DNA from: Candidatus Eiseniibacteriota bacterium
GTDB lineage: Bacteria > Eisenbacteria > RBG-16-71-46
Length of the DNA stretch: 64,000 nt
NCBI GenBank assembly: GCA_963717505.1
Contig: OY970342.1
Coordinates: forward strand, 2,848,001 to 2,912,000
Reading direction: 5' to 3'
Positions 7,696 to 64,000 of this stretch are shown one piece after another (the first letter of the stretch is position 1; every line of letters starts with the position of its first letter). Position numbers and translations under genes: made by a program. The notes under the pieces were generated by a model. That model was not told where the DNA came from. It worked only from the letters and a program-made list of their open reading frames with translations, and made no database searches.

Positions 7696-10044
7696 TGCCA
7701 GAGCTTGGAACCGTGGGTCGTTCCGAAGGGACGCGAGCCGCGGATCGATCGAGAGGTAGGCGAGCACCGTCGAACGCTCCTCGTAGGAGCGCTCGAGGTA
7801 GCGCAGCGCCTGGTCGCGTTCCCCGAGTCCAGCGTGCACCAACGCGAAGTAGTAGGCCGAGACGTAGCTGTGGGCTTCGGCGTCGTGAAGTGCGCGAAGG
7901 ACATCCCGCGCCTCGACCGACCGACCCGCCATTCCATAGACATGGCCGAGTGAGGACTTGCGATTCAGACTCACGCGGCTGATCGGCTCCAGGATCCTGA
8001 TGGCGTCGTCGAGGCGACCCTGTTGCTCGGCCACCAGGGCCAGCCCCCATTGGGCCAGGACGTCCGTGGAGTCGACTTCGAGGACCTCGCGCAAACCGCT
8101 GTCGGCTTGGTCATAGTGGCCTGCGAAATAGTCGAGCAGGGCGCGGTTCGCATGCAGCAGCAGCGAAAGCGGGTCCAGCTCGACGGCGTGACCGAGCTGC
8201 GCGACGGCTTCGTCGAACCGGCGGCGTGACGCGAGGAAGCGGCTGTACGAGAAGTACGCGTCCGCATAGTTGGGTCGCAGCTCGAGGGCGCGCCGGAATT
8301 CCCGTTCGGCGGCACGGTAGTCCCAATCATAGTAGGCCCGGATGTAGGCGTTGGCGGCGTGCGCCTCGGCAAGCGTCTCGTCGAGTTCGAGGGCAAGAGC
8401 CAGAGACGCGCGGGCCTTGGGCAGCACCATGGCCGGCGATACGTCCTTGGCGAACGGAAGCGAGGTGTAGTAGTTGGCCAGGCCGACATGGGGCGGCGCC
8501 CAACCCGGCGCGATCTTGCCCGCCTGCTCGAACTGCATCCGAGCGGGCTCCAGTTCGTCGTGCTCGAGGTGGAACCGACCGCGGAGGTAGGCCTCGTAGG
8601 CGCGAGGATCGACCACCCGCGTCGCGTCGAGTCGGCTCTTCTCCTCGCCCTTGAGCTTCGTTCGGGTCGACTGGGTGATTCCGAGAGTGATCTCTCGCTG
8701 CAGCTCGGGCAACTCGCCCAAACGACGCCGGTAGTCCTTCGCAAACACGGTGGCACTGTCGGGGGCGTGAAGGAGTCTCACGCTCACCCATACCGAGTCG
8801 CCCATCCTCCCGATCGAGCCACGAACCACGCCCTTGACTCCGAGCTCGCGAGCCAGCTCGGCGAGAGATCGGGTCGGACCTTGAGCGGCCGCTCCGGCCG
8901 AGCGCGAGAGCACTCTGAGCGAGGAGATCTGAGCCAGATCGGCGATCAGCCCCTCGGTCATGCCGACGCCGAGGAACGAGCCCGTGGAATCGCTCGTCAG
9001 GTCCTCGAACGGGAGCACGGCGATCGCCGTGATTCCGCCGGACACGGCGCGAGTCGGTCCCAAAGGACGCCCCGCGACGATCCACCACGCCACCGCGCTC
9101 AGAACGCCGGCGGCGAGCGCTATCGTTGCTCCACGACCCCAACGCATTGAGTGCGGGCTCGGCGTTGCAGTGGGCGTTGCGAGGTGGACCGGCGAGGTCT
9201 CCGGTAAGTCGATCGCATCGAGGAATCCCCGCATCGAGTCGAAGCGGTCGACCGGGAGTTTGGCCATGGCTCGAAGGATCGTGTTCTCCACCGTGGTGGG
9301 CACCGCGGGACGCACGATTCGCAGGCCAGGGACGGAATCGTGCGAATGACGAGCGAGAATCATGACCGGAGTCGTCCCGGAAAACGGGGGCTGTCCGATC
9401 AGCATCTCGTACAGCACGCACGCGAGACTGTACTGATCGCTTCGACCATCGACCGCAGTGCTGCCGGCCTGCTCGGGGCTCATGTATTGCGGGGTGCCGA
9501 CGTACATGCCACTGACGGTGATCTGATCGGCGCCGGCGGCATCCACCGCTCGCGCGATCCCGAAATCGGCGACGACGGCGTGGCCGCCGGTGAGCATGAT
9601 GTTGTCCGGCTTGATGTCGCGATGAATGACGCCGTGTTCGTGGGCATAGCCCAGGGCGCTGCCGACCTCACGAACGATCTGGAGCGCGGTTTCGAGTGGC
9701 AGCTGGGGCTCGCGTGCCAGACGCTCGCGGAGGGACTCGCCCTCGACGAACGGCATCACGTAGTAGAGCAAGCCGTCGGCCTGACCCGAGTCGTACAAGG
9801 GAAGAATGTGGGGATGCTGGAGGGTCGCGGCGATCGAGATCTCGCGGAGGAACCGGTCGCTACCCACGACCGCCGCGAGTTCCGGCTTGAGCACCTTGAT
9901 GGCGACCCGCCGCTGGTGCTTGAGATCCTCGGCGAGAAAGACGATGGCCATCCCGCCGTGGCCTAGCTCCCGCTCGACGCGATAGCGGTCGCCGAGTGCG
10001 GATTTGAGTCGATCGAAGAGTTCGGCCTGACCGGAGTAGGTCAT
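7675..10044 (-). CDS. Hanks-type Ser/Thr kinase with TM, TolB_N-like and TPR domains
   Basis: LGHGGMA, VAIK, HRDIKPDN, DFG, GTPQYMSPEQ; TM segment; IAVLPFEDL; TPR repeats. Confidence 0.93.
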   Translation of the reverse strand: MTYSGQAELFDRLKSALGDRYRVERELGHGGMAIVFLAEDLKHQRRVAIKVLKPELAAVVGSDRFLREISIAATLQHPHILPLYDSGQADGLLYYVMPFVEGESLRERLAREPQLPLETALQIVREVGSALGYAHEHGVIHRDIKPDNIMLTGGHAVVADFGIARAVDAAGADQITVSGMYVGTPQYMSPEQAGSTAVDGRSDQYSLACVLYEMLIGQPPFSGTTPVMILARHSHDSVPGLRIVRPAVPTTVENTILRAMAKLPVDRFDSMRGFLDAIDLPETSPVHLATPTATPSPHSMRWGRGATIALAAGVLSAVAWWIVAGRPLGPTRAVSGGITAIAVLPFEDLTSDSTGSFLGVGMTEGLIADLAQISSLRVLSRSAGAAAQGPTRSLAELARELGVKGVVRGSIGRMGDSVWVSVRLLHAPDSATVFAKDYRRRLGELPELQREITLGITQSTRTKLKGEEKSRLDATRVVDPRAYEAYLRGRFHLEHDELEPARMQFEQAGKIAPGWAPPHVGLANYYTSLPFAKDVSPAMVLPKARASLALALELDETLAEAHAANAYIRAYYDWDYRAAEREFRRALELRPNYADAYFSYSRFLASRRRFDEAVAQLGHAVELDPLSLLLHANRALLDYFAGHYDQADSGLREVLEVDSTDVLAQWGLALVAEQQGRLDDAIRILEPISRVSLNRKSSLGHVYGMAGRSVEARDVLRALHDAEAHSYVSAYYFALVHAGLGERDQALRYLERSYEERSTVLAYLSIDPRLASLRNDPRFQALALRIGGE

Positions 10045-10131
10045 CTGGAGACCATGATCGCGTGCCTGAAGGGCTGGTCGCAACCGATCGGAAGTGGCGC
10101 GCTCCGGGCGCGCCGCGAACCCACCTCGGGG

Positions 10132-10719
10132 CTAACGCAGGGACAGAGCCGCCTCGGTGATCCACGACAGCGTCTGTCGAGCGTCGCCGTAGCCGCGCAT
10201 GCTCACGTGCTGGCCGCTGGCCGGCGAGTAGACGACCAGGGTTGGAAAGGCCTCGACGCTGTAGCGTCGCTGGAGATCCTCGACTTCGGAGGAGTTGCGT
10301 CCTTCTTCGCGCCGGCGATCGACGATCGAAACCGGGATGACCGCCGTTTGCACCGATCGCCCGAGCGTGGGGTGGTCGAACAACTCGCGCTTGAGACTCC
10401 GGCAGGGACCGCACCACTCGGCGTTGAAGTCGATGAGCACCGGTTTGCCGTTCTCGCGCGATTCGGCGACCGCGCGCTCCATGGTGGTCCACTGCGACAC
10501 GACCTCACGGGCCTTCGCGGGCTCGGGCGCAGGTGCTGGGCGCGGGGGGGCAACCTGACTCGGGGGCGGTTCGCCCGGGTGCTCGGGATTGACGATCGCT
10601 GGCTTGGGGTTGGTGGGTGCCGGGGAATCCGAAACCTCGGCCTGGCCAATGAACCATCCCGCCGCGGGTGCCGCGACGAGAAGCAACAGGAGCAGGCCGT
10701 GCCAGGCGTTGAGTCGCAT
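10132..10719 (-). CDS. Membrane-anchored thioredoxin-family protein
   Basis: N-terminal hydrophobic anchor, Pro-rich linker, KPVLIDFNAEWCGPC, FPT. Confidence 0.88.
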   Translation of the reverse strand: MRLNAWHGLLLLLLVAAPAAGWFIGQAEVSDSPAPTNPKPAIVNPEHPGEPPPSQVAPPRPAPAPEPAKAREVVSQWTTMERAVAESRENGKPVLIDFNAEWCGPCRSLKRELFDHPTLGRSVQTAVIPVSIVDRRREEGRNSSEVEDLQRRYSVEAFPTLVVYSPASGQHVSMRGYGDARQTLSWITEAALSLR

Positions 10720-10768
10720 GGCGGGAGTATCGGCAAGGGCGGTGACCCAGGTTCACTCGGAATCCCAG

Positions 10769-12436
10769 CTACTCGAGCCGCACGAATCTCCCCGTGGCGA
10801 CCGCGATGCCGTCGACCGAGAGGCGCGCCAGGTAGACGCCAGCCGGGGCGAGCTGACTCCGATGGTCCATCGCGTCCCAACTCGCGGAACCGGCCCCTGC
10901 GCCCAGGCGATCCGCGAGCAGGCGCCGGACCAGCCGGCCCTCGATGTCGAAGATCTCGAGGACGACGCGCCCCGGTCGAGGGAGTTCGAAGCGAAGCAAT
11001 GTCGTGCGGCTGGCCGGATTCGGCAAGGCCGGGTGCAGTCGTGCCGAGGTGGGAACCACCGCACCATTGACGGCGACCACCGGCGCCTCCACCAGCACTT
11101 CCTCGGTGAAGATGCTCTCGTTGTAGTTGTCGTCGTACGCCGACACGCTCACCTGGATCGGGAGCGAATGCGCGATGGAATCGAGCACATGCTCCTGCAC
11201 CGGCCCCGGATCCAAGCCGACGTCGCGGATGTCGAAGTAGTAGACGCTGTCTGCGGCCGTATCACGAAGAGCGACGCGGTAGCCCGCGAGGTCCGGCGAG
11301 TTCAACAGGCTCGGCCAGGTGAGCCGGATCGAGGTTGGCGACCGCGCCTGCACCGTGGGGCGCGACGGCGACTCAGGGGCGAGTGCCAGGTTCGCGATCC
11401 CCGCCAGGTTCACTTTCGCGACCCGCGCGACGTAGCCGGGATCGGTGTCGGCCGCGACATCGAGCGCGTTGTGCTGGCGCCCACTGTTCGCGCTTCCCGT
11501 GTAGTACTCGTTCGCTTCGGTCAGACGGGCAGCCGCCCAGCCGCGCGCATCGAAGGCCATGTGGTCGCCGCCGCGGTTCGGGCGATCGCGCGCCGGGATC
11601 AGGTCGACCGTGAAATCCGGCACGTAGCGGGCCGCATTGAGTTTGATCGCGCGCGCGAGCTGCCGGTGGATCGAGTGCGGCGGTCCGGCCGAGAAGTGGC
11701 GGACGCGCAGGCTGTCGATGATCGTAGCGGCACCCGCGGGGCAGGCGGGGTTTGCGCAGCCGGCGACGTTGCCGACGACGTCGTTCGAGATCATGCCGTC
11801 GATGCGCATGCCCTGCGCAGCGGCCCATGCGGCGTAGGCCTTGCTGCCGACCAGCCCCTGCTCCTCGCCGGTGAAGGCCGTGAGGATCACTCCGGCGTCG
11901 AATCGAGCCCGACTCATCACCCGCGCCAGCTCGATGGTAATCGCGGTGCCGCTGCCATCGTCGTTGGCCCCCGGAGCGAACGAAGTGTCGTCGCATGTCG
12001 ACGTCGTGCGGCTGTCCATGTGCGCACCCACGACGAACCAGCGGGCCGGACTGCCGTCGCCCGGCAAAGTGGCGACCACGTTCTTGTGCCGGCCTATTCG
12101 CCCGCAGACCGTCGAATCGAACGTGAAGAAGGTCGGCTCGATCCGCCGATCCGGATCGGCGGCGAATGCGAGGAACCGGGAGTAGATCCAGTTGCGCGCG
12201 GCGCCGATGCCGTGGGTTGCCGACGAGGTATCCGAATTTGTGTGTCGGGTATGAAACGATTCGAGAGTCTCGATCGAGGTTCGCAACTCATCGGCCGAGA
12301 TCGCATCGACCATCTGCTGGACCGTCGGATTGGGCGGGAGCGCAGCAGGCGCCGACCAGGAGGTAACCGGCCTCGATAGGGACAAGGCGAGGAGCCCCGC
12401 CGCGGCGAGCGGGTGGAAGGCCGCGAGTCGGAGCAT
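10769..12436 (-). CDS. Secreted M28-family metallopeptidase with C-terminal FlgD-Ig/CTD domain
   Basis: GAHMDS, GANDDGSG, GEEQGL and GGDH motifs; PNP...GVYLARL C-terminus; start chosen at the signal peptide. Confidence 0.88.
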   Translation of the reverse strand: MLRLAAFHPLAAAGLLALSLSRPVTSWSAPAALPPNPTVQQMVDAISADELRTSIETLESFHTRHTNSDTSSATHGIGAARNWIYSRFLAFAADPDRRIEPTFFTFDSTVCGRIGRHKNVVATLPGDGSPARWFVVGAHMDSRTTSTCDDTSFAPGANDDGSGTAITIELARVMSRARFDAGVILTAFTGEEQGLVGSKAYAAWAAAQGMRIDGMISNDVVGNVAGCANPACPAGAATIIDSLRVRHFSAGPPHSIHRQLARAIKLNAARYVPDFTVDLIPARDRPNRGGDHMAFDARGWAAARLTEANEYYTGSANSGRQHNALDVAADTDPGYVARVAKVNLAGIANLALAPESPSRPTVQARSPTSIRLTWPSLLNSPDLAGYRVALRDTAADSVYYFDIRDVGLDPGPVQEHVLDSIAHSLPIQVSVSAYDDNYNESIFTEEVLVEAPVVAVNGAVVPTSARLHPALPNPASRTTLLRFELPRPGRVVLEIFDIEGRLVRRLLADRLGAGAGSASWDAMDHRSQLAPAGVYLARLSVDGIAVATGRFVRLE

Positions 12437-12485
12437 GCGACCGGCAGAATCAACGATCGGGCGGCGTGGAGCAAATGAAGCCGGG

Positions 12486-12785
12486 TTACTTCGCGCGGAA
12501 CCTGCGAACCATCCCGATGAGCCGCCAGGCCTCGAGTCCGCCCCAGAACCAGTGGATGATCTGACGGGGGCGGATGGCCGCAAGCGCAACCGCGGCCACG
12601 CTGAATCCGACCGCAACAATGCCCGCGCTCCGCTTCAGACTTCGGACGAACGCCAGGCCCCAATCGACGACCTCGAGCGGTTTTTGCCAGCGCCCAAACA
12701 GGGCCGCCAGCTCATCTCGCTCGCCGGCAGCGCGTTCCACGAGGCGAGCCCGACGCGCCAGATTCTCGTTTCGACCTCCGCTCAC
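12486..12785 (-). CDS. YqjK-like protein
   Basis: RRARLVERAAGER...; third gene of the DUF883-YqjE-YqjK arrangement. Confidence 0.7.
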   Translation of the reverse strand: MSGGRNENLARRARLVERAAGERDELAALFGRWQKPLEVVDWGLAFVRSLKRSAGIVAVGFSVAAVALAAIRPRQIIHWFWGGLEAWRLIGMVRRFRAK

Positions 12786-13177
12786 GGCTTGCCCGCCAGT
12801 CGATCACGATCCTTGCGTAGTTCCGCGATGGTGGTCGCAAACATCGGCGGGCGGCTCTTGAGCCACGAGCGCAGCCAGAGGAGGCCGCCGCCGGCTGCCA
12901 GGAGCAGAACGAGAGCGGCAATGCCTATTGCGGCCAACCAGTGATCCCTGCCGATCACGAGGACGGCGAAGAGCACGGCGAGGAGGGTGCCGGCCTGGAG
13001 GAAGATGAGCACGGCGAACGCGACAACCAACGCCCGCGTGATGTTGAAGCGCTCTTCCGCGACCTCGGTCGACAGAATCTCGAGCCGGGTTTGCAGCACA
13101 CGCAGCACGCTGCCGACCAGCCGGCGCAGCGAACCCGCCAGTCCCTCGTCCGGGCGAGACTCCGAGTCCTGGCTCAT
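12782..13177 (-). CDS. YqjE-like putative holin-family membrane protein
   Basis: TRLEILSTE, two TM helices, F.TT.AEL.KD ending. Confidence 0.82.
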   Translation of the reverse strand: MSQDSESRPDEGLAGSLRRLVGSVLRVLQTRLEILSTEVAEERFNITRALVVAFAVLIFLQAGTLLAVLFAVLVIGRDHWLAAIGIAALVLLLAAGGGLLWLRSWLKSRPPMFATTIAELRKDRDRLAGKP

Positions 13178-13183
13178 CGTTCG

Positions 13184-13489
13184 CTAGCGTCTGGAAACCA
13201 GAACTCCGACCAACAACCCGGCGACCGCGGCGATGCCGACGGCGCCCCAAGGGTGCTCGTGCACATAGTCGTCGGCGGCCTTGGCCGCGTCCTTGGCGTG
13301 GCCCACCACGTCGAGGTTGGCCAGCTTTTCTTTGGCGGCGCGCAGGGTTTCCTCGGCGCGCGCACGCGCAGCACTCGCGCGCTCGCCTGCGGCGCCGGCA
13401 GTGGCCTTCAACAGTTCTTCCGCATCGTCGATGACCGCCTTGAGGTCGGTCATGAGTTGGTCGCGGGCTTCGGCTGTGGATTGAGGCAT
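13184..13489 (-). CDS. DUF883/ElaB/YqjD-family tail-anchored protein
   Basis: DAEELLKATA and DDYVHEHPWGAVGIAAVAGLLVGVLVSRR; AAGGAG SD. Confidence 0.92.
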   Translation of the reverse strand: MPQSTAEARDQLMTDLKAVIDDAEELLKATAGAAGERASAARARAEETLRAAKEKLANLDVVGHAKDAAKAADDYVHEHPWGAVGIAAVAGLLVGVLVSRR

Positions 13490-13683
13490 GGTCGGCGCTC
13501 CTTGGGCCGGGGTCGAACTCGGGGTTGATTGGGACCGCATGATGTCGCCGAGGGCGCCCGACCGCAAGCCGCGTTCGCGAACACCTCGCGGGCGCCGAAT
13601 TGATCCTCAGAGGTCGCGACGTTTCCGGGCTGACGGCGACGCAACGTTCCGCTCGCTGACAGCGCGCTTCTGACGAACCAGGA

Positions 13684-14775
13684 CTACCGGCGTGAGAGCG
13701 TCTCGACGCTGTCCCACACCGCGAGCGCCGGCTTGGGTACCAGGTCGTCGTCGACCAGCCCGCAGGTCGCGAACAACGGCAGGATCGACCCTGGCGGCAG
13801 GGGCACGCCGGTCAGGTCGAGATCGGTGAAGGTGAGCTGGAACACGCCGATCGCGTTCGCAGCGTCGAGCATCGCCATCTGTCGCCGAATGTATCGCGCC
13901 TGTTCCACGGGCGACGACACGATGGTGTCCAGCGTCGCGGACGACCACCCGCCTTCGGTGACCATCACCGGCGTGCCACGGCCGGTCACGAGCCGCGAGT
14001 AGTAGTCGAGCGGCAGGTTCTCCGGTTCCGCCCAGCCGGCCAGGTAGGGATAGGACGACAACCCCAGAACTTGAAGAAACGGGAAGTCAATGAAGTCCTG
14101 ATCCACACCTTGGAAGGGGGCGGGCGGCAGCCGACCCCACGCCGTCTCGACCTGCACGCTGGCGAACAGCGTCACTCCCGGATTGCGGGCGCGGACGTCG
14201 GCCGCTGCGTCGTTGGCCACCTGGCGAATCGCCGCGTAGAGCGCGGGCGACGACGCCACCCGAATCAAGTTGGTCTCGGCAACCGTTCCCAGCATGTCGG
14301 GCCTCAGGATCGAATCCGAGACCACGACGTAGCGGCGGAACAGCTGCTGGATCTCCGTCTCGGTCATGCTACGCCCGGCGTTGACCAGCGCGTCCGAGTC
14401 GCTGCCGCGGTTCAGACCGTTGCTGGGATCGATCAGCAGGACGAAGAAGTGCCCCTTGGCGCGGTAGTACTGGGCGAGCCCCAGATTCTCGCGCACCACC
14501 AGCGTTTCCGGCGGGACTCCGGCGAGCAGCGAATCCCACGGCGGCTCGTGATGCATGATGGCCTGGTCGGCGCGCAACGACCACATGTCGATCGCCGCGA
14601 TGGCCTGGAGCAGGTTGGCGCGCGGCGGGATTCCGGAGAACCCCATTCGGTAGCTCCGGCTCGGGGTGGCAGGACCGTTGGGCCCGTGCGAGGATCCGGA
14701 ACACCCGAGCGTGGCAGTTGCCAGGGCAAGGGAGAGCACTAGGAGGATTTGCGAACGGTGGGCGGCGGAGCGCAT
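13684..14775 (-). CDS. Lipoprotein, putative TIM-barrel glycoside hydrolase
   Basis: Lipobox TLGC; AETN acid/base-like, SSYPY, VMVTEGGW nucleophile-like and GL...KPAL.W motifs typical of clan GH-A. Confidence 0.65.
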   Translation of the reverse strand: MRSAAHRSQILLVLSLALATATLGCSGSSHGPNGPATPSRSYRMGFSGIPPRANLLQAIAAIDMWSLRADQAIMHHEPPWDSLLAGVPPETLVVRENLGLAQYYRAKGHFFVLLIDPSNGLNRGSDSDALVNAGRSMTETEIQQLFRRYVVVSDSILRPDMLGTVAETNLIRVASSPALYAAIRQVANDAAADVRARNPGVTLFASVQVETAWGRLPPAPFQGVDQDFIDFPFLQVLGLSSYPYLAGWAEPENLPLDYYSRLVTGRGTPVMVTEGGWSSATLDTIVSSPVEQARYIRRQMAMLDAANAIGVFQLTFTDLDLTGVPLPPGSILPLFATCGLVDDDLVPKPALAVWDSVETLSRR

Positions 14776-48091: not shown

Positions 48092-48181
48092 CTGGCGTCC
48101 CCAACCATCGAGAATTCGAACCGCCTGATCGGCTGGTTGCGGGGGATGGATGGGCTCAAGCAGGATCTCAAGACCCCCTGA
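48092..48181 (+). repeat. att-like element copy A (antisense tRNA-Glu 3' end plus peptide tail)
   Basis: TGGCGTCCCCAAC...ATTCGAACC; reads LASPTIENSNRLIGWLRGMDGLKQDLKTP*; homologous to 62505 and 63243. Confidence 0.8.
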
Positions 48182-52485: not shown

Positions 52486-52640
52486 TGTGTGCGACGACAC
52501 GTCGGGAGGTCGAGCAAAACCCTGCCGACTCGTAGGTGAGAACCAAGCGAGATAGTCGTGCCCACCAGTTGAGGAGGCGCACCGGGAACCAGGCTACTGC
52601 TGACGAGTTGAAGTGTTCGTTTCTCGTGCAGGAGGTGCCT

Positions 52641-54641
52641 GTGTCTCGCTTCCGCCTAGGCTCCGAGAGAAGTTCGCTGCTCGACATGCCACCGATCGCC
52701 GCGGCATTGACGTTGGCGTTCATTCCCCTCGTTGTGTCCACGTGTAGCGCGGCGTGGGTCCCGAACGGCGCGCCTGTCACCATGGCGCCGGGCGAACAAT
52801 CATTGGAATCCACGGTTCCCGACGGGAACGGCGGCGCATACGTGTTCTGGCGGGACAACCGCCTCGGCTACGACTACGCACCCCGATACGACGTCTTCGC
52901 CCAACACCTGGACGCCGAAGGCGAAGTGGTTGCCGGATGGGACCCGCAGGGCAACCCGATCGCAAACACCGATGACCACGAAGGCGGTGCTCGTGCCATC
53001 AGCGATGGCGCGGGCGGCGCGATCGTGATGTGGGCGGCAGGCAACTATCGCCTGCAGCGGGTTCGCCCTGATGGGTCCCATGCCTGGTCATCCGGCGGTG
53101 TGTCCGTCTCGGATGACGGCGCCGCCCGCGTGTCCGGCCAAGTCATGCCCGACGGTTCGGGAGGTGTCTACGTCGTTTGGGCCAACGCCGTGGTGAGGCC
53201 ATCGCTCGAGGCGCTCTGCCCGCGCTGTCATCCCAGCTACACCTATCATCTCTTCGCACAGCGCATCGATGCATCCGGCAACCGTCTGTGGGGCGCGATG
53301 GGGGTACCGGTGACTCCAGACTCCATCGCTGGCAACGTAACCCTGCTCCTCGGCAACGAGGGGCGTCCGCTCATCCTATGGATCGATGTGCTGGGAATGT
53401 ATCGAGCCCAGGAACTCGACTCCGATGGACATGCTCGCCTGCAACCAGATGGTCAGGTCATTCCGCATCTTCGCGGCGGGCTCACTGCAGCTACCGGACC
53501 GCGCCAAGCGGTGACCGTATTCAACTACGGGGAGGACACACACGAAGACATCGCGGCCCAACACCTCGGGCCCGATCTCACGGTGGACTGGGGAGAGTCG
53601 GGCCAGCCGATCGTCGTCGAGGCTCACAAACAGGAGCCAACAGGGATGACCGGCGATGGTGAGGGCGGCGTACTGCTCGCATGGCACGATATCCGGAACG
53701 CCGTTAGTTGGGATGTGTATCTCACTCGCGTGACATCGGGAGGAAGCTTGGCTGAAGGCTGGCCGGATCATGGACTTCCCGTTTGCACGATGTCGGAGAG
53801 GCAAGACAGTCCGACACTGATCTCCGATGGAGACGGCGGGGCGTACGTGGCATGGATAGACCTTCGAGAACCGACCAACGGCTACGACCTCTATCTGCAA
53901 CGTGTACTCGGAACCGGGACTATTGCGGCGGGCTGGCCAGACCAGGGCCTTCCGATCTGTATCATTCCGCAGCAACAGGTGAACCCCCAGCTCGTCGCCG
54001 ATGGCAACGGCGGAGTCATCGTCGTTTGGAACGACTATCGGCGTGGCTCGGAAATCTACGCGCAAAGGATCGATGCTCACGGTCGGATCGGCGACCAGCA
54101 CACTGCGGTTATCGTGTCGCAAGCAATTCTTACGGTCGACGCAAACGACGTGACTGCCGAATGGCAGGTCGACGTGGCAGGAATCAATAGCGTCGAAGTC
54201 CTGCGGTCGAGCGTTGCCCGCGGCGTCGAACGGCTCGGAACGGCATTGATCAATGGCTCGCATCGCGCACGGTTCACGGATCGCGACGTGCCTTCAGGCC
54301 GTTACGGGTATGCGATTGAACTCGTGCATCTCGGGACGACCATGACCACTGAATTCACCTGGATCGACGTCGTGCCCTCAGCTCGGCTTGCGCTCGAGGG
54401 TTTCCGTCCAAATCCATCGAACGGATGGGCTCCGATTGCGTTCGTTCTCCCCGAGGCCGGGCCCACGCAAGTTGAAATCTTCGACATACGAGGACGTCGG
54501 ATGCGTGATCTGAGAGAGGCTCACTTGAGCGCTGGGTCCCACTCCATCGCGGTCGGTGGGCGTCTACCGGCGGGTGTCTATTGGATCCGACTGACGGCCG
54601 GGACTCGAAGTATTGCGGCCCGAGGGGTGGTCCTCGACTAG
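52641..54641 (+). CDS. Secreted repeat protein with CTD, paralog of 43319..45082
   Basis: WVPNG start of the mature protein; DG.GG...W.D.R repeats; PNPS..GVYW C-terminus; AGGAGG SD. Confidence 0.85.
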   Translation: MSRFRLGSERSSLLDMPPIAAALTLAFIPLVVSTCSAAWVPNGAPVTMAPGEQSLESTVPDGNGGAYVFWRDNRLGYDYAPRYDVFAQHLDAEGEVVAGWDPQGNPIANTDDHEGGARAISDGAGGAIVMWAAGNYRLQRVRPDGSHAWSSGGVSVSDDGAARVSGQVMPDGSGGVYVVWANAVVRPSLEALCPRCHPSYTYHLFAQRIDASGNRLWGAMGVPVTPDSIAGNVTLLLGNEGRPLILWIDVLGMYRAQELDSDGHARLQPDGQVIPHLRGGLTAATGPRQAVTVFNYGEDTHEDIAAQHLGPDLTVDWGESGQPIVVEAHKQEPTGMTGDGEGGVLLAWHDIRNAVSWDVYLTRVTSGGSLAEGWPDHGLPVCTMSERQDSPTLISDGDGGAYVAWIDLREPTNGYDLYLQRVLGTGTIAAGWPDQGLPICIIPQQQVNPQLVADGNGGVIVVWNDYRRGSEIYAQRIDAHGRIGDQHTAVIVSQAILTVDANDVTAEWQVDVAGINSVEVLRSSVARGVERLGTALINGSHRARFTDRDVPSGRYGYAIELVHLGTTMTTEFTWIDVVPSARLALEGFRPNPSNGWAPIAFVLPEAGPTQVEIFDIRGRRMRDLREAHLSAGSHSIAVGGRLPAGVYWIRLTAGTRSIAARGVVLD

Positions 54642-61222: not shown

Positions 61223-62398
61223 TCAGCGGAGCCGCACAAACCGACGCGACTGCCGTTCCGGGCCGGATCCGGCCACAAGCAGGTAAAGCCCCGCGGGTGC
61301 AGGCCGGCCACTCGAATCGAGTCCGTCCCAGCTCAGCTCGTGCGGCCCGGGCGTGAACACGTCGTCTGCGATCAGGCGCAGCCTGCGACCCTCGACGTCG
61401 ACGACCTCGACGCGCATGCGCCGTGGGTCGGGCACGTCGAGCCGGAACCGGACCGTGCCGCGATTCGGGTTCGGCATGGGCGCCGAGAGCCGTGCGCCGC
61501 TGGGCTGCGGGTCCGGAAGGCCCGCAACCGTGTTCTCGACGACGAAGTACTGCTGTCCCGGAACGCCATCGAGATCCACGCTGGATGCAGGACCAAGGGC
61601 GCAGGTGCCGGGCGGAACCGGGCCGAGGAGCTGGTTGGAGATCTCGACATCCAGCCCCGACGGGCGCGCGAGCAGCACGCAGATCCGGAACGGACCGGTG
61701 GGATCCCCGAGCGCGGCTAGCGGCACGGCCCATTCGAGTCCGCTCGTGACCCCGCTTCCCGAAGACGCGTTGCAACCTGCGTCGACGCCTCCTGTGTTCG
61801 AGCGATCGAAGCTGGCGAGGATGCCGTGGGGATTGACCGCGCCGGGGCCGACGAGAGTGCCTGGGGGCCCCAGCACCCCCCGGCCGAGGAAGGAGCCTGT
61901 GGCGCCGCCGACAGACGGCAGTTCCGCGAAGTAGGCCGGAAACCCGGCGGCGTCGCGGGCCACGGCGAGCCAGTAGTCGGGGGCGAACTCGGCGTCGAAC
62001 GTGAGCTCCGCCACGCTTTGAAGCGTCACCCAATCCTGCGGGCTCGAGTTGTCGTCGCTCAGGCTGTTCTGGCCGCCGGATCGCGTGTCGACGAACACAT
62101 GCAGCTGCGCCACCGGGTAGAGGAACTCGCTGTAGAAGCGATTAAGGCTGCCCGCGATGAACAGGAACAGCTTGCCGTCCTCGACCAGCACGTACGCGGC
62201 GTCCAGCTCGGATCCGGGGGAGATTTCGTACTGGTAGTCGCCGAGACTCGTCTGTGTCGATTGGACGCTCAACGGCTCGCCATAGGTGGCGTCGAGGATC
62301 CCATCCACCACCGGCGCAGCACTGGAGTTGGCGACCGGAGCGAGCAGCGCCACGCCGTAGAGGAGGACGCGAAGTCGATGCCCTGATGCCGTCCCCAT
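61223..62398 (-). CDS. Secreted protein with FlgD-Ig/CTD domain
   Basis: Signal peptide; VDG.LD..YG, GSELDAAY, SNQ.LG motifs; PNP..WDG..GLY C-terminus. Confidence 0.82.
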   Translation of the reverse strand: MGTASGHRLRVLLYGVALLAPVANSSAAPVVDGILDATYGEPLSVQSTQTSLGDYQYEISPGSELDAAYVLVEDGKLFLFIAGSLNRFYSEFLYPVAQLHVFVDTRSGGQNSLSDDNSSPQDWVTLQSVAELTFDAEFAPDYWLAVARDAAGFPAYFAELPSVGGATGSFLGRGVLGPPGTLVGPGAVNPHGILASFDRSNTGGVDAGCNASSGSGVTSGLEWAVPLAALGDPTGPFRICVLLARPSGLDVEISNQLLGPVPPGTCALGPASSVDLDGVPGQQYFVVENTVAGLPDPQPSGARLSAPMPNPNRGTVRFRLDVPDPRRMRVEVVDVEGRRLRLIADDVFTPGPHELSWDGLDSSGRPAPAGLYLLVAGSGPERQSRRFVRLR

Positions 62399-62504
62399 GC
62401 GGGCGAGGTTATCAGATGAGCGAGCGGGCCGAACCGACGAACTACGATGTTGCTCGCCTCCGATCGGTGGCTTCTCGGCGGAGGCGGCGCGGCGCCGATC
62501 CCAT

Positions 62505-62591
62505 GTGGCGTCCTCAACGGGCGCGGATTCGAACCGCTTGGCGGCGTGGCTTCGCGGGATGGATGTGCTCCGTCGTGTTTTGGCTGTGTAG
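62505..62591 (+). repeat. att-like element copy B
   Basis: TGGCGTCCTCAACGGGcgcggATTCGAACC; reads VASSTGADSNRLAAWLRGMDVLRRVLAV*. Confidence 0.8.
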
Positions 62592-62601
62592 CTGTCCCCG
62601 C

Positions 62602-62630
62602 TTGCGCATAGTAACGGCCCGCGTTACTAT
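62602..62630 (+). promoter_or_regulatory. higBA promoter with operator palindrome
   Basis: TTGCGC-17 nt-TACTAT; perfect inverted repeat ATAGTAACG-gcccg-CGTTACTAT at 62608-62630. Confidence 0.8.
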
Positions 62631-62636
62631 CGAACG

Positions 62637-62918
62637 GTGATTCGGAGCTTCCGAGGCAAGGACGCCCACCGGCTCTTCAACCGCAGCCCTGTCCGGAGGC
62701 TCGGGGCGGACGTTCAGCGCATCGCGCTACGCAAGCTAAGGCAGCTCGATGCTGCGGTTGCGCTGGAAGACCTTCGCGTTCCACCGGGCAATCGCCTCGA
62801 GAGACTCCGCGGTGATCGGGCCGGGGAGTGGAGCATCCGGATCAACGACCAGTGGCGCATCTGCTTCCGCTGGGAGGGAGGCGATGCTCATGACGTGGAG
62901 ATCGTGGATTACCACTGA
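62637..62918 (+). CDS. higB: HigB/RelE-family toxin
   Basis: MIRSF, LRVPPGNRLE.L.G, SIRINDQWRICF, VEIVDYH. Confidence 0.95.
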   Translation: MIRSFRGKDAHRLFNRSPVRRLGADVQRIALRKLRQLDAAVALEDLRVPPGNRLERLRGDRAGEWSIRINDQWRICFRWEGGDAHDVEIVDYH

Positions 62919-62930
62919 ACTGGAGAGCTC

Positions 62931-63236
62931 ATGGCGACCAAGAAACTGACGCCGATTCATCCGGGAGAGATCCTGCTGGAGGACTTTCTCGAGCCACTGG
63001 GCTTGTCTCAGTACCGGCTAGCAAAGGGACTCAACGTTCCGGCCAGGAGAATCAACGAGATCGTCCTTAGGAAGCGCGCGATTACCGCCGACACGGCCTT
63101 GCGACTGGCGCGTTTCTTCGGAACCTCTGATCGGTTCTGGCTGAATCTCCAGGCAGCCTATGATCTCGATGTCGAGCGTGATCGCCTGGCTGGGCGGCTC
63201 CAGCGTGAGGTGGAAGTGCTGCGGCGCGCGAGCTAA
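62931..63236 (+). CDS. higA: HigA antitoxin (XRE HTH)
   Basis: IHPGEILLEDFL, ITADTALRLARFFGTS..FWLNLQ..YDL. Confidence 0.95.
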   Translation: MATKKLTPIHPGEILLEDFLEPLGLSQYRLAKGLNVPARRINEIVLRKRAITADTALRLARFFGTSDRFWLNLQAAYDLDVERDRLAGRLQREVEVLRRAS

Positions 63237-63242
63237 GAGTCG

Positions 63243-63335
63243 CTGGCGTCCCCAACGGGCGTGGATTCGAACCACCTCATCGGTTGGCTTCACGGAATGT
63301 ATTCCCTCCAGAGGTCTCTGGAGACTGCTGCGTGA
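63243..63335 (+). repeat. att-like element copy C
   Basis: TGGCGTCCCCAACGGGcgtggATTCGAACC; reads LASPTGVDSNHLIGWLHGMYSLQRSLETAA*; contains the CTCCAGAG-gt-CTCTGGAG hairpin. Confidence 0.8.
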
Positions 63336-63382: not shown

Positions 63383-64000
63383 CTAGTGGCGAGTTGGCTC
63401 GGATGGCGATGGTCGGGGCTTCGTGACCTGGATGATGAGCGGCTTGGTTGTCACGTAGCCTCGCCAAAGTCGCTCGAGTGGGAGATCTTTGCCCCGCAGT
63501 GGCAGGAATTCGCCGACTCCGAGTTCGAAGCGAATGCCGTATCGCCCCGCCTCTCCGAAGCACTGGCCGACGGCGCCATTACGATCGACGACGTCTTGAC
63601 GATCAGCGCCGCGCACGGGAGCTGCCGAAAACACATCCCAATCGCAGGCTGGACCAAGGTTCATGTCGAAGCGCCCTCGACCGAACCTGACGGGGTACAC
63701 AAGGCTATCGCCTGGACTCAGTGAGACGAAATCGGACTTGGAAAGTGTCCGCCCCAGGGAGTAGGCAATGCTTGGCTCCAAGACGCATCGGCGAGCCGAT
63801 GTAGCCCCCCAGACACGGACACGGAGATCCCATTCCCCTTCCTCTAGCATCTGCTCTGGCTTCGGGCGAAGGAGGACCAACGTATCCGACCCCGCGTTCA
63901 AGAACACGAGATTGAGATCGATCGCTTCACCCGCTGCGAAAACCGTGGTCGGTGTTCGGACGACCAACTGAAGCGACTGGGAGGTCGTCGCAGGCGTGAC
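63383..64000 (-). CDS. Hypothetical Ig-like-fold protein, 5'-partial
   Basis: Frame open to the window edge; F..GE.I.L, N.G.D.L, L.PGDS, GRY pattern. Confidence 0.6.
   Translation of the reverse strand, partial: VTPATTSQSLQLVVRTPTTVFAAGEAIDLNLVFLNAGSDTLVLLRPKPEQMLEEGEWDLRVRVWGATSARRCVLEPSIAYSLGRTLSKSDFVSLSPGDSLVYPVRFGRGRFDMNLGPACDWDVFSAAPVRGADRQDVVDRNGAVGQCFGEAGRYGIRFELGVGEFLPLRGKDLPLERLWRGYVTTKPLIIQVTKPRPSPSEPTRH

Follow-up and report, generated by a model that had tools for sequence, protein, structure and literature searches.

The small higBA toxin-antitoxin unit described here, 738 bp in length, is probably an integrase-less module of the CIME kind, held within a tandem accretion array of element remnants at the gene for tRNA-Glu(UUC). 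Island build-up of this kind is known, but the unit is an uncommonly small case of it. The window, a term used here for the whole stretch of DNA that was analysed, is 64,000 nucleotides long and corresponds to bases 2848001-2912000 of a single 4.16-Mb contig from a Candidatus Eisenbacteria genome. Within it, two attachment-site cores at 62506-62521 and 63244-63259 enclose higB and higA and no other gene; since both sites are kept and an integrase is lacking, the unit can be regarded as a minimal element of the CIME kind.

Attachment-site copies and the array at tRNA-Glu(UUC)

The two repeats that flank the unit, referred to as copies B and C, form a direct repeat of 66 nt (62506-62571 and 63244-63309) with 76% identity and a distance of 738 nt from start to start. 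A 29-nt degenerate pattern derived from both copies finds exactly two matches in the 64-kb window, against 0.00 expected from 100 shuffles, and the repeats on which an earlier note on this DNA had based its reading are thus genuine. A DNA profile built from B, C and a third, outlying copy of the window (A) and run over the whole genome located three further copies (D-F) as well as an intact tRNA-Glu(UUC) gene. The copies, the tRNA gene and the open reading frame that follows copy C are listed below.

48092-48181, plus strand: copy A, the outermost; its 13-nt core (48093-48105) equals the tRNA-Glu 3' end in reverse complement
62505-62591, plus strand: copy B; core 62506-62521, TGGCGTCCTCAACGGG, with 15 of 16 bases equal to the tRNA-Glu end
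63243-63335, plus strand: copy C; core 63244-63259, with 16 of 16 bases equal to the tRNA-Glu end
63383-64000, minus strand: start of the C-D segment (917 bp), with a 240-aa ORF that has no Pfam match and runs off the window
Genome 2912159: copy D, 159 nt past the end of the window, found by the DNA profile
Genome 2913968: copy E, beyond the window, found by the DNA profile
Genome 2915246: copy F, beyond the window, core only, found by the DNA profile
Genome 2928849-2928924, minus strand: tRNA-Glu(UUC), intact and the only one in the genome, outside the window

At the start of each copy stand the last bases of tRNA-Glu(UUC) in reverse complement, TGGCGTCCCCAACGGG; the match is 13-16 nt long in copies A-E and 23 nt long in copy F, and all six copies are oriented uniformly towards that gene, which is the layout expected of successive integrations into a tRNA 3' end. 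Beyond their cores, copies A, B and C continue into a coding remnant of an integrase tail, which reads LASPTIENSNRLIGWLRGMDGLKQDLKTP and then stops in A, VASSTGADSNRLAAWLRGMDVLRRVLAV with the stop codon TAG at 62589-62591 in B, and LASPTGVDSNHLIGWLHGMYSLQRSLETAA with a TGA stop in C; identity among the copies is 76-79%. Judged by their sequence, the repeats are copies of an attachment site that stems from the 3' end of tRNA-Glu, and the att-like character ascribed to them in the earlier note is borne out by the 13-23-nt cores that match the 3' end of tRNA-Glu(UUC).

The stack from copy A to the tRNA, which itself lies outside the window, spans 32.8 kb and consists of six segments of 14413, 738, 917, 1809, 1278 and 13603 bp, counted from A to the tRNA. 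The segments from copy B onwards are foreign in composition, with G+C contents of 60-62% against a genome mean of 67.7% (standard deviation of 1-kb windows, 2.7%). The cargo is miscellaneous and includes outer-membrane barrels, DUF1579, SnoaL, Kelch, kinase, NHL and radical SAM genes and IS. Many of the island genes end in FlgD_ig or Por_Secre_tail, C-termini that resemble sorting signals (window 52536-54641 and 61223-62398; L020:6489-8108, 8386-13125 and 13140-13964), and these ends suggest that the island cargo consists largely of secreted or surface proteins. The E-F segment is filled by an NHL-repeat gene (genome 2914100-2915119); a 43%-identical NHL gene lies between two copies in a related genome (G017, L056:10533-11498), but faces the other way with respect to them.

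As regards recombinases, PF00589 was found neither in any of the six segments between copy A and the tRNA nor beside the tRNA, the far side of tRNA-Glu holds no recombinase, and no PF00239 or other resolvase-family gene occurs anywhere in this genome. The family of core-crossing integrases described below is also absent from the genome, where tblastn searches with its representatives P0044 and P0063 match tails only. With no matching integrase in the genome, the higBA unit has no means of its own to excise at present. Neither IntI nor attI stands at the array head, and the array has no foldable attC sites. The array is therefore real and of a non-integron type, as had been supposed from the window, and copies D-F carry it beyond the window to the tRNA.

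A second site, at tRNA-Gln/tRNA-Glu(CUC), is recognizable both in this genome and in that of a relative (G034). The core of the copy found there equals the 3' end of tRNA-Glu(CUC) and is joined to an unchanged tail, which indicates that the core tracks the target tRNA and that the tail is conserved. In this genome, a seventh tail copy at 2670142-2670258 on the minus strand, about 1.1 kb from tRNA-Gln/tRNA-Glu(CUC), has a core that resembles the 3' end of the CUC and not of the UUC gene, and marks a second docking site for the element family. In the tRNA-Glu(CUC) gene beside tRNA-Gln(CUG), at about 2669162-2669270, about 35 nt are repeated in tandem, in that the gene runs through positions 1-66 of the G034 gene and then through 32-76, and ARAGORN makes no call there; a second tRNA-Glu(CUC) does not appear among the tRNAs listed for this genome, and the duplication reflects either a fault of assembly or the scar of a recombination event. 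Elsewhere in the genome, ARAGORN reports an over-long tRNA-Arg (94 nt, 280073-280166), an over-long tRNA-Ile (98 nt, 506827-506924) and one tRNA with an undetermined anticodon (3623405-3623495), odd calls that could be introns or miscalls.

Comparable stacks occur in other Candidatus Eisenbacteria genomes. The profile of the tail peptide matches 15 of 61 related genomes; by family, matches are found in 13 of the 36 others of the same family, in one of 10 of a second family and in none of eleven further families. At the DNA level, copy A has matches in 20 of 89 genomes of the family, spread over 11 of its 28 genera, and a scan of genome contigs with the DNA pattern yielded nine loci on eight contigs, five of them from Candidatus Eisenbacteria MAGs and three of them short contigs from outside those MAGs. 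Where contigs are long enough for a stack to be judged, copies directly follow tRNA-Glu(UUC), with seven copies over 19 kb in G032, three in G012, two in G017 and one in G028. An integrase pseudogene with an in-frame TAG reads into the tRNA in G028, and the gene on the 5' side of tRNA-Glu is conserved in G017, G032 and G028. Most segments between copies measure 0.4-3 kb and carry no integrase (PF00589 is present in two of about 22, and 13 of 22 are shorter than 2 kb), with mixed gene orientation inside the segments. A literature search pairing Eisenbacteria with integrase returned no paper.

A coding tail beside the core

In one frame, the sequence after the core gives a peptide of roughly 28-30 residues followed by a stop, with a consensus close to ASPT-x3-SNRL-x2-WLR-x-MD-x-LRQ-x4-AA. 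In 29 distinct copies collected by ungapped blastn, a search that is blind to the reading frame, dN/dS over codons 12-25 amounts to 0.33 in the tail frame and to 1.06, 1.28, 1.09, 0.61 and 1.51 in the other five; an in-frame stop interrupts these codons in one of the 29 copies, and copies collected by peptide search give the same coding picture. The tail, about 60 bases past the core, evolves like coding sequence, a pattern among related copies that carries no formal significance, because the copies are non-independent relatives. Coding on the reverse strand is ruled out by the dN/dS of the other frames. A separate small gene was rejected as well: the first codon is of the type NTG, with CTG in 11, TTG in six, GTG in five and ATG in two of the 29 copies, and starts are not enriched. 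This lack of a start-codon preference suggests that the tail frame is entered from upstream.

What lies upstream can be seen in proteins from other genomes. An exhaustive profile search with the tail peptide returned 566 database proteins at E ≤ 0.001, nearly all of which are short calls with the tail peptide at their C-terminus. Among the 17 longer proteins that were scanned, P0044 and P0063 contain pieces of an integrase catalytic domain that run into the tail, P0085 contains an integrase arm-binding domain that does the same, and P0068, in which HTF...HYGRF integrase motifs are visible by eye, also runs into it; by our own reading, P0085 seems to be without the HxxR segment. P0281 apart, none of the tail-carrying proteins has been shown to be a fully intact enzyme. 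Two further proteins, P0148 (225 aa) and P0039 (169 aa), resemble the C-terminal parts of large serine recombinases and end in the same tail, with a Zn_ribbon_recom domain in P0039; elements of another recombinase class may thus use the site or abut it.

Both possible endings of a core-crossing integrase are found among P0063-related proteins with a length of 280 aa or more. Among the 120 matches listed, 20 end in xSPTGFE..., of which 19 have the ending 'GFEPV.PP', seven end in another tRNA-antisense reading, and P0281 (375 aa) is the sole one to end in the tail. The ending 'GFEPV.PP' is the reading of the reverse complement of an intact tRNA-Glu (LASPTGFEPVSPP, then a stop); the integrated form thus ends in the tRNA-encoded ASPTGFEPVSPP and the non-integrated form in the tail. 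The presence of both endings among P0063-related integrases places the recombination core inside the 3' end of the gene, and in this family the integrase frame crosses the core in the manner of phage Mx8. Since integrases that cross the core end in either the tRNA-encoded or the tail form, the repeat can be understood as a core plus the 3' part that integration has cut from an integrase gene.

The tail is not the end of every array integrase. This broader assumption, which is kept for the 'GHKTRS' type, fails for the integrase of the G032 array, an intact 276-aa ORF that stops 15 nt ahead of the core, and the tail is found in none of the best 120 homologs of that protein. The tail is thus a feature of some, and not all, of the integrase families acting at the site. 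Immediately ahead of copy B, the window retains a trace of an integrase:

62397-62504, plus strand: probable tyrosine integrase remnant, the last ~35 codons, in frame with copy B

Its sequence MRARLSDE... aligns with ...MYARLSDE... of the G032 array integrase, and the joint alignment of remnant and tail has an E-value of 7e-6, a figure that includes the tail. The rest of that integrase gene is gone, with the start of a minus-strand FlgD_ig gene abutting at 62398. As the remnant resembles the G032-type integrase, which stops before the core, its being in frame with copy B may be due to chance.

The higBA unit and its homologs

Between copies B and C, the following features are present.

62602-62630, plus strand: promoter-like TTGCGC-17 nt-TACTAT, a 7-of-12 match found by sequence inspection
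62611-62628: palindrome GTAACG-N6-CGTTAC, the presumed HigA operator, overlapping the -10 region
62637-62918, plus strand: higB, 93 aa, RelE-fold mRNA interferase toxin (PF05015, E 8e-19, full length)
62931-63236, plus strand: higA, 101-aa HTH antitoxin (HTH_3, E 4e-9)

The nearest solved relative of HigB is PDB 6f8s_B (E 2e-27), Proteus HigB entries follow at E ~1e-10, and the C-terminal end of the protein reads VEIVDYH, in which DYH presumably has a catalytic role. HigA is matched by the structures 3trb_A, 7csv_A and 6f8s_A (E 4e-23 to 3e-17), and HigA and GraA-type structures continue to match down to E 1e-7. The two genes form one operon, with higB upstream, higA downstream and a gap of 12 nt, and this combination of a HigB/RelE-fold toxin with a downstream HTH (Xre-type) antitoxin assigns the pair, by its predicted products, to the HigBA type II systems. 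ORFs, Pfam matches and the palindrome agree that only a promoter/operator, higB and higA lie between the two copies, as the earlier note had stated. Its two distances also hold: the promoter-like TTGCGC begins 11 nt past the end of copy B at 62591, and the higA stop codon (63234-63236) falls 6 nt short of copy C.

The putative higBA promoter is given here as a 7-of-12 match because a strict σ70 consensus scan with a 9-of-12 threshold finds no promoter site at higBA; its -10 region and the palindrome are kept in five homologous higBA loci. The -10-like TACTAT ends 6 nt ahead of the GTG start of higB (62625-62639), which leaves no room for an RBS, and with the -10 so near the start the higBA mRNA may be leaderless or nearly so. 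A weak terminator-like hairpin with a T-rich run occurs at 62558-62583, within the end of the copy B tail. It could shield higBA from upstream transcription; one such hairpin was found where 0.7 are expected by chance.

HigB-like genes (E ≤ 1e-8) are present in 11 of the 89 genomes of the family, four of them with at least 76% identity. The most informative of these is in G094, which belongs to another genus. Here the homology covers window positions 62506-63259 only, with 88.9% identity over 754 nt, limits that coincide exactly with the outer edges of cores B and C, and neither flank is related; the core on the right belongs to the F type, and the higA stop lies 4 nt from it. HigB and HigA are 90% and 97% identical between the two genomes, compared with 72% for the orthologous DEAD-box helicase, so that a recent exchange is indicated, with one gene as the standard of comparison. 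Sharing from core to core between unrelated flanks indicates that the higBA unit has behaved as a discrete module.

The remaining close homologs are more loosely tied to the repeats. A single core lies 85 nt downstream of higA in G110, and no cores were found within the 5-7 kb contigs of G095 and G004, where the homology spans 62600-63236 only, i.e., the promoter and the genes. By this comparison, the higBA operon with its operator is itself portable, and has been boxed between two cores in one lineage. The expectation that close homologs would be flanked by the same repeats is thus borne out in part: of the four with a HigB identity of at least 76%, one has both cores, one has the downstream core only and two have none. 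The proposal of a 738-bp excisable unit likewise divides, in that the discrete module is supported by G094, but present-day excision is not, as there is no recombinase in or beside the array. The best public sequencing runs, of which four were examined (short, low-depth Logan contigs with a word share of at most 0.23), contained no joints and no contig spanning the unit.

Proposed build-up of the array and its relation to known systems

The findings can be brought together in a single course of events. Elements of this family would integrate by site-specific recombination through an attP core that corresponds to the last ~16 bases of the tRNA and that, in at least one integrase family, lies within the integrase gene at its 3' end. 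The last ~28 codons of that gene would be severed on integration and left, with a core copy, at the far (attL) end, and each newcomer, landing at the re-formed tRNA end, would push the older elements outward until the order A-B-C-D-E-F-tRNA is reached. The att-like repeats would be these attL-type sites, and the higBA unit would extend from copy B through the operator and the two genes as far as copy C's core. For such a unit to move, another element would have to provide an integrase of matching specificity; the core-to-core sharing with G094 lends indirect support to movement of this sort. From the present arrangement we infer both an order of arrival and a past excision and re-integration of the unit, and HigBA may keep the unit, perhaps together with its neighbours, from being lost, either by post-segregational killing or as phage-defence cargo. 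Among the points that count against the CIME reading are that an integrase deletion would have left the higA stop only 4-6 nt from an intact core, that two of the four homologs are coreless, that this genome has no core-crossing integrase and that the G032-type integrase lacks the tail.

An alternative is an integron-like form of capture, in which small one- or two-gene cassettes would not be leftovers but the primary mobile units, inserted at the tRNA-Glu end by a recombinase acting in trans, with higBA as the array-stabilising cassette, as in Vibrio superintegrons. The small size of the segments (13 of about 22 under 2 kb, 20 of 22 without an integrase), genes lying tight on the sites (the higA stop at 6 nt from the core here and at 4 nt in G094), cargo made up of ordinary accessory genes and not of phage or conjugation genes, the sharing of the higBA unit by two genera from core to core, and the tail at the end of the serine-recombinase-like P0148 and P0039 are all as such capture would have them. 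However, the primary site lacks a conserved neighbouring recombinase in this genome, G032, G012 and G017, the repeat has no conserved fold (RNAalifold, 23 copies), and gene orientation within the segments is mixed; moreover, a core joined to a severed integrase 3' end explains the site and predicts that each copy was once part of an integrase-bearing element. We regard cassette capture as unlikely, and it is the tight spacing between higA and the core, together with the mostly tiny, integrase-less segments, that keeps its low probability from falling further. Doubtful too, if with some chance of being right, is a joint reading in which Eisenbacteria, and perhaps other uncultivated lineages, would practise integron-like capture with tRNA-Glu as the docking point and ~75-bp sites, where passing integrases would shuffle the units, higBA would act as an anchor, and the alternative C-termini, tail and tRNA-encoded, would form a switch between the integrating and the resident state.

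At the other extreme, the B-C interval might be a frozen scar, i.e., what random deletion has left of a larger element, which never moved as a unit, has no role in the array and persists because loss of HigBA is lethal. The array of this genome has no integrase, its copies are only 76-79% alike and hence old, and G095 and G004 have higBA and its operator but no cores, all of which would suit a scar. The unit in G094 is what makes this quite improbable: homology ends exactly at both cores, the neighbours differ, and the identities of HigB and HigA (90% and 97%) exceed the 72% of the ortholog, so that the unit, once formed, must either have recombined at both cores or have been transferred. Least credible is a view of the repeats as chance similarities, tRNA pseudogenes or a small RNA gene, with no link to recombination. 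The T-loop-like motif GGATTCGAACC within the repeats might be taken as a hint of RNA, but ARAGORN and Rfam scans of the window detect no tRNA or known RNA at the repeats, and the RNAalifold consensus of 23 copies reaches -0.05 kcal/mol with three pairs and no covariation, that is, no conserved fold; the period-3 coding pattern, the fixed orientation to the tRNA and the recurrence beside tRNA-Glu in many genomes also speak against it, and such a view can hardly be maintained.

Seen as an accretion array with a CIME-like higBA module, the locus offers a worked example, from a phylum known from metagenomes only, of a tRNA gene turned into a long-lived docking site, where even a lone toxin-antitoxin pair has lasted as cargo with intact recombination sites on either side. 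In practice, the cut-off integrase tail can serve as a marker, as a short peptide or DNA profile finds stacks and the boundaries of their units in draft genomes that lack integrases. If the small units are mobilised in trans, gene exchange at the size of cassettes would not be confined to integrons, and toxin-antitoxin pairs could be a general anchoring device for such stacks.

The closest parallels are found among islands that grow at attachment sites. CIMEs and tandem accretion have been described at the attachment sites of ICEs and IMEs in the ICESt1/ICESt3 model (PMC5704250). The higBA unit resembles CIMEs in standing in tandem with others at the 3' end of a target gene and in depending for movement on the integrase of a neighbour or newcomer; it differs in measuring 738 bp, in consisting of a toxin-antitoxin pair alone and in being one of several tiny units in a row, as well as in having no functional partner element in its genome and a host from an uncultivated phylum; mobilization in cis is putative here. 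The ssrA islands of Dehalococcoides (McMurdie et al. 2011, PMC3146451) form a tandem series downstream of a single small RNA gene, and short direct repeats of that gene's 3' end mark the limits of every island; about half are without an integration module and were proposed by the authors to be mobilizable in cis. A tandem stack at an RNA gene, with extra conservation next to the repeat, is common to both systems. The target in Dehalococcoides is tmRNA, with the serine recombinase DsiB next to attL, islands of ~10 kb and dehalogenase cargo, whereas here the target is tRNA-Glu, the associated integrases belong to the tyrosine recombinases, most segments stay below 3 kb, and what is conserved beside the core is the severed integrase 3' end.

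As for the position of the core, phage Mx8 of Myxococcus xanthus carries attP within the 3' part of int, so that integration gives the gene a new 3' end (PMC6070905). The two endings found here, tRNA-encoded ASPTGFEPVSPP when integrated and the conserved tail when not, are of this kind. The integrases and the host are different from those of Mx8, as described in PMC6070905; only ~28 codons are swapped, and the severed tails pile up as markers of the stack. Two further systems share the small size of the unit. A stabilising role has been proposed for the higBA cassettes of the Vibrio cholerae superintegron (PMC4032106), which have in common with the present unit a self-contained higBA between two recombination sites and a chromosomal array of small units, although here there is no intI, attI or folded attC, the sites are direct repeats derived from a tRNA, and orientation is mixed. 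Finally, the dif modules of Acinetobacter plasmids include the 768-bp 'add' toxin-antitoxin module (PMC6449649). Like the higBA unit, 'add' consists of a toxin-antitoxin pair only, measures about 750 bp, lies between site-specific recombination sites and occurs in various contexts. Its boundaries are inversely oriented XerC/XerD pdif sites on plasmids (PMC6449649), whereas those of the higBA unit are direct repeats of tRNA-Glu cores on a chromosome; with flanking sites that are direct repeats from a tRNA end, the higBA unit is not a Xer-dependent dif module.
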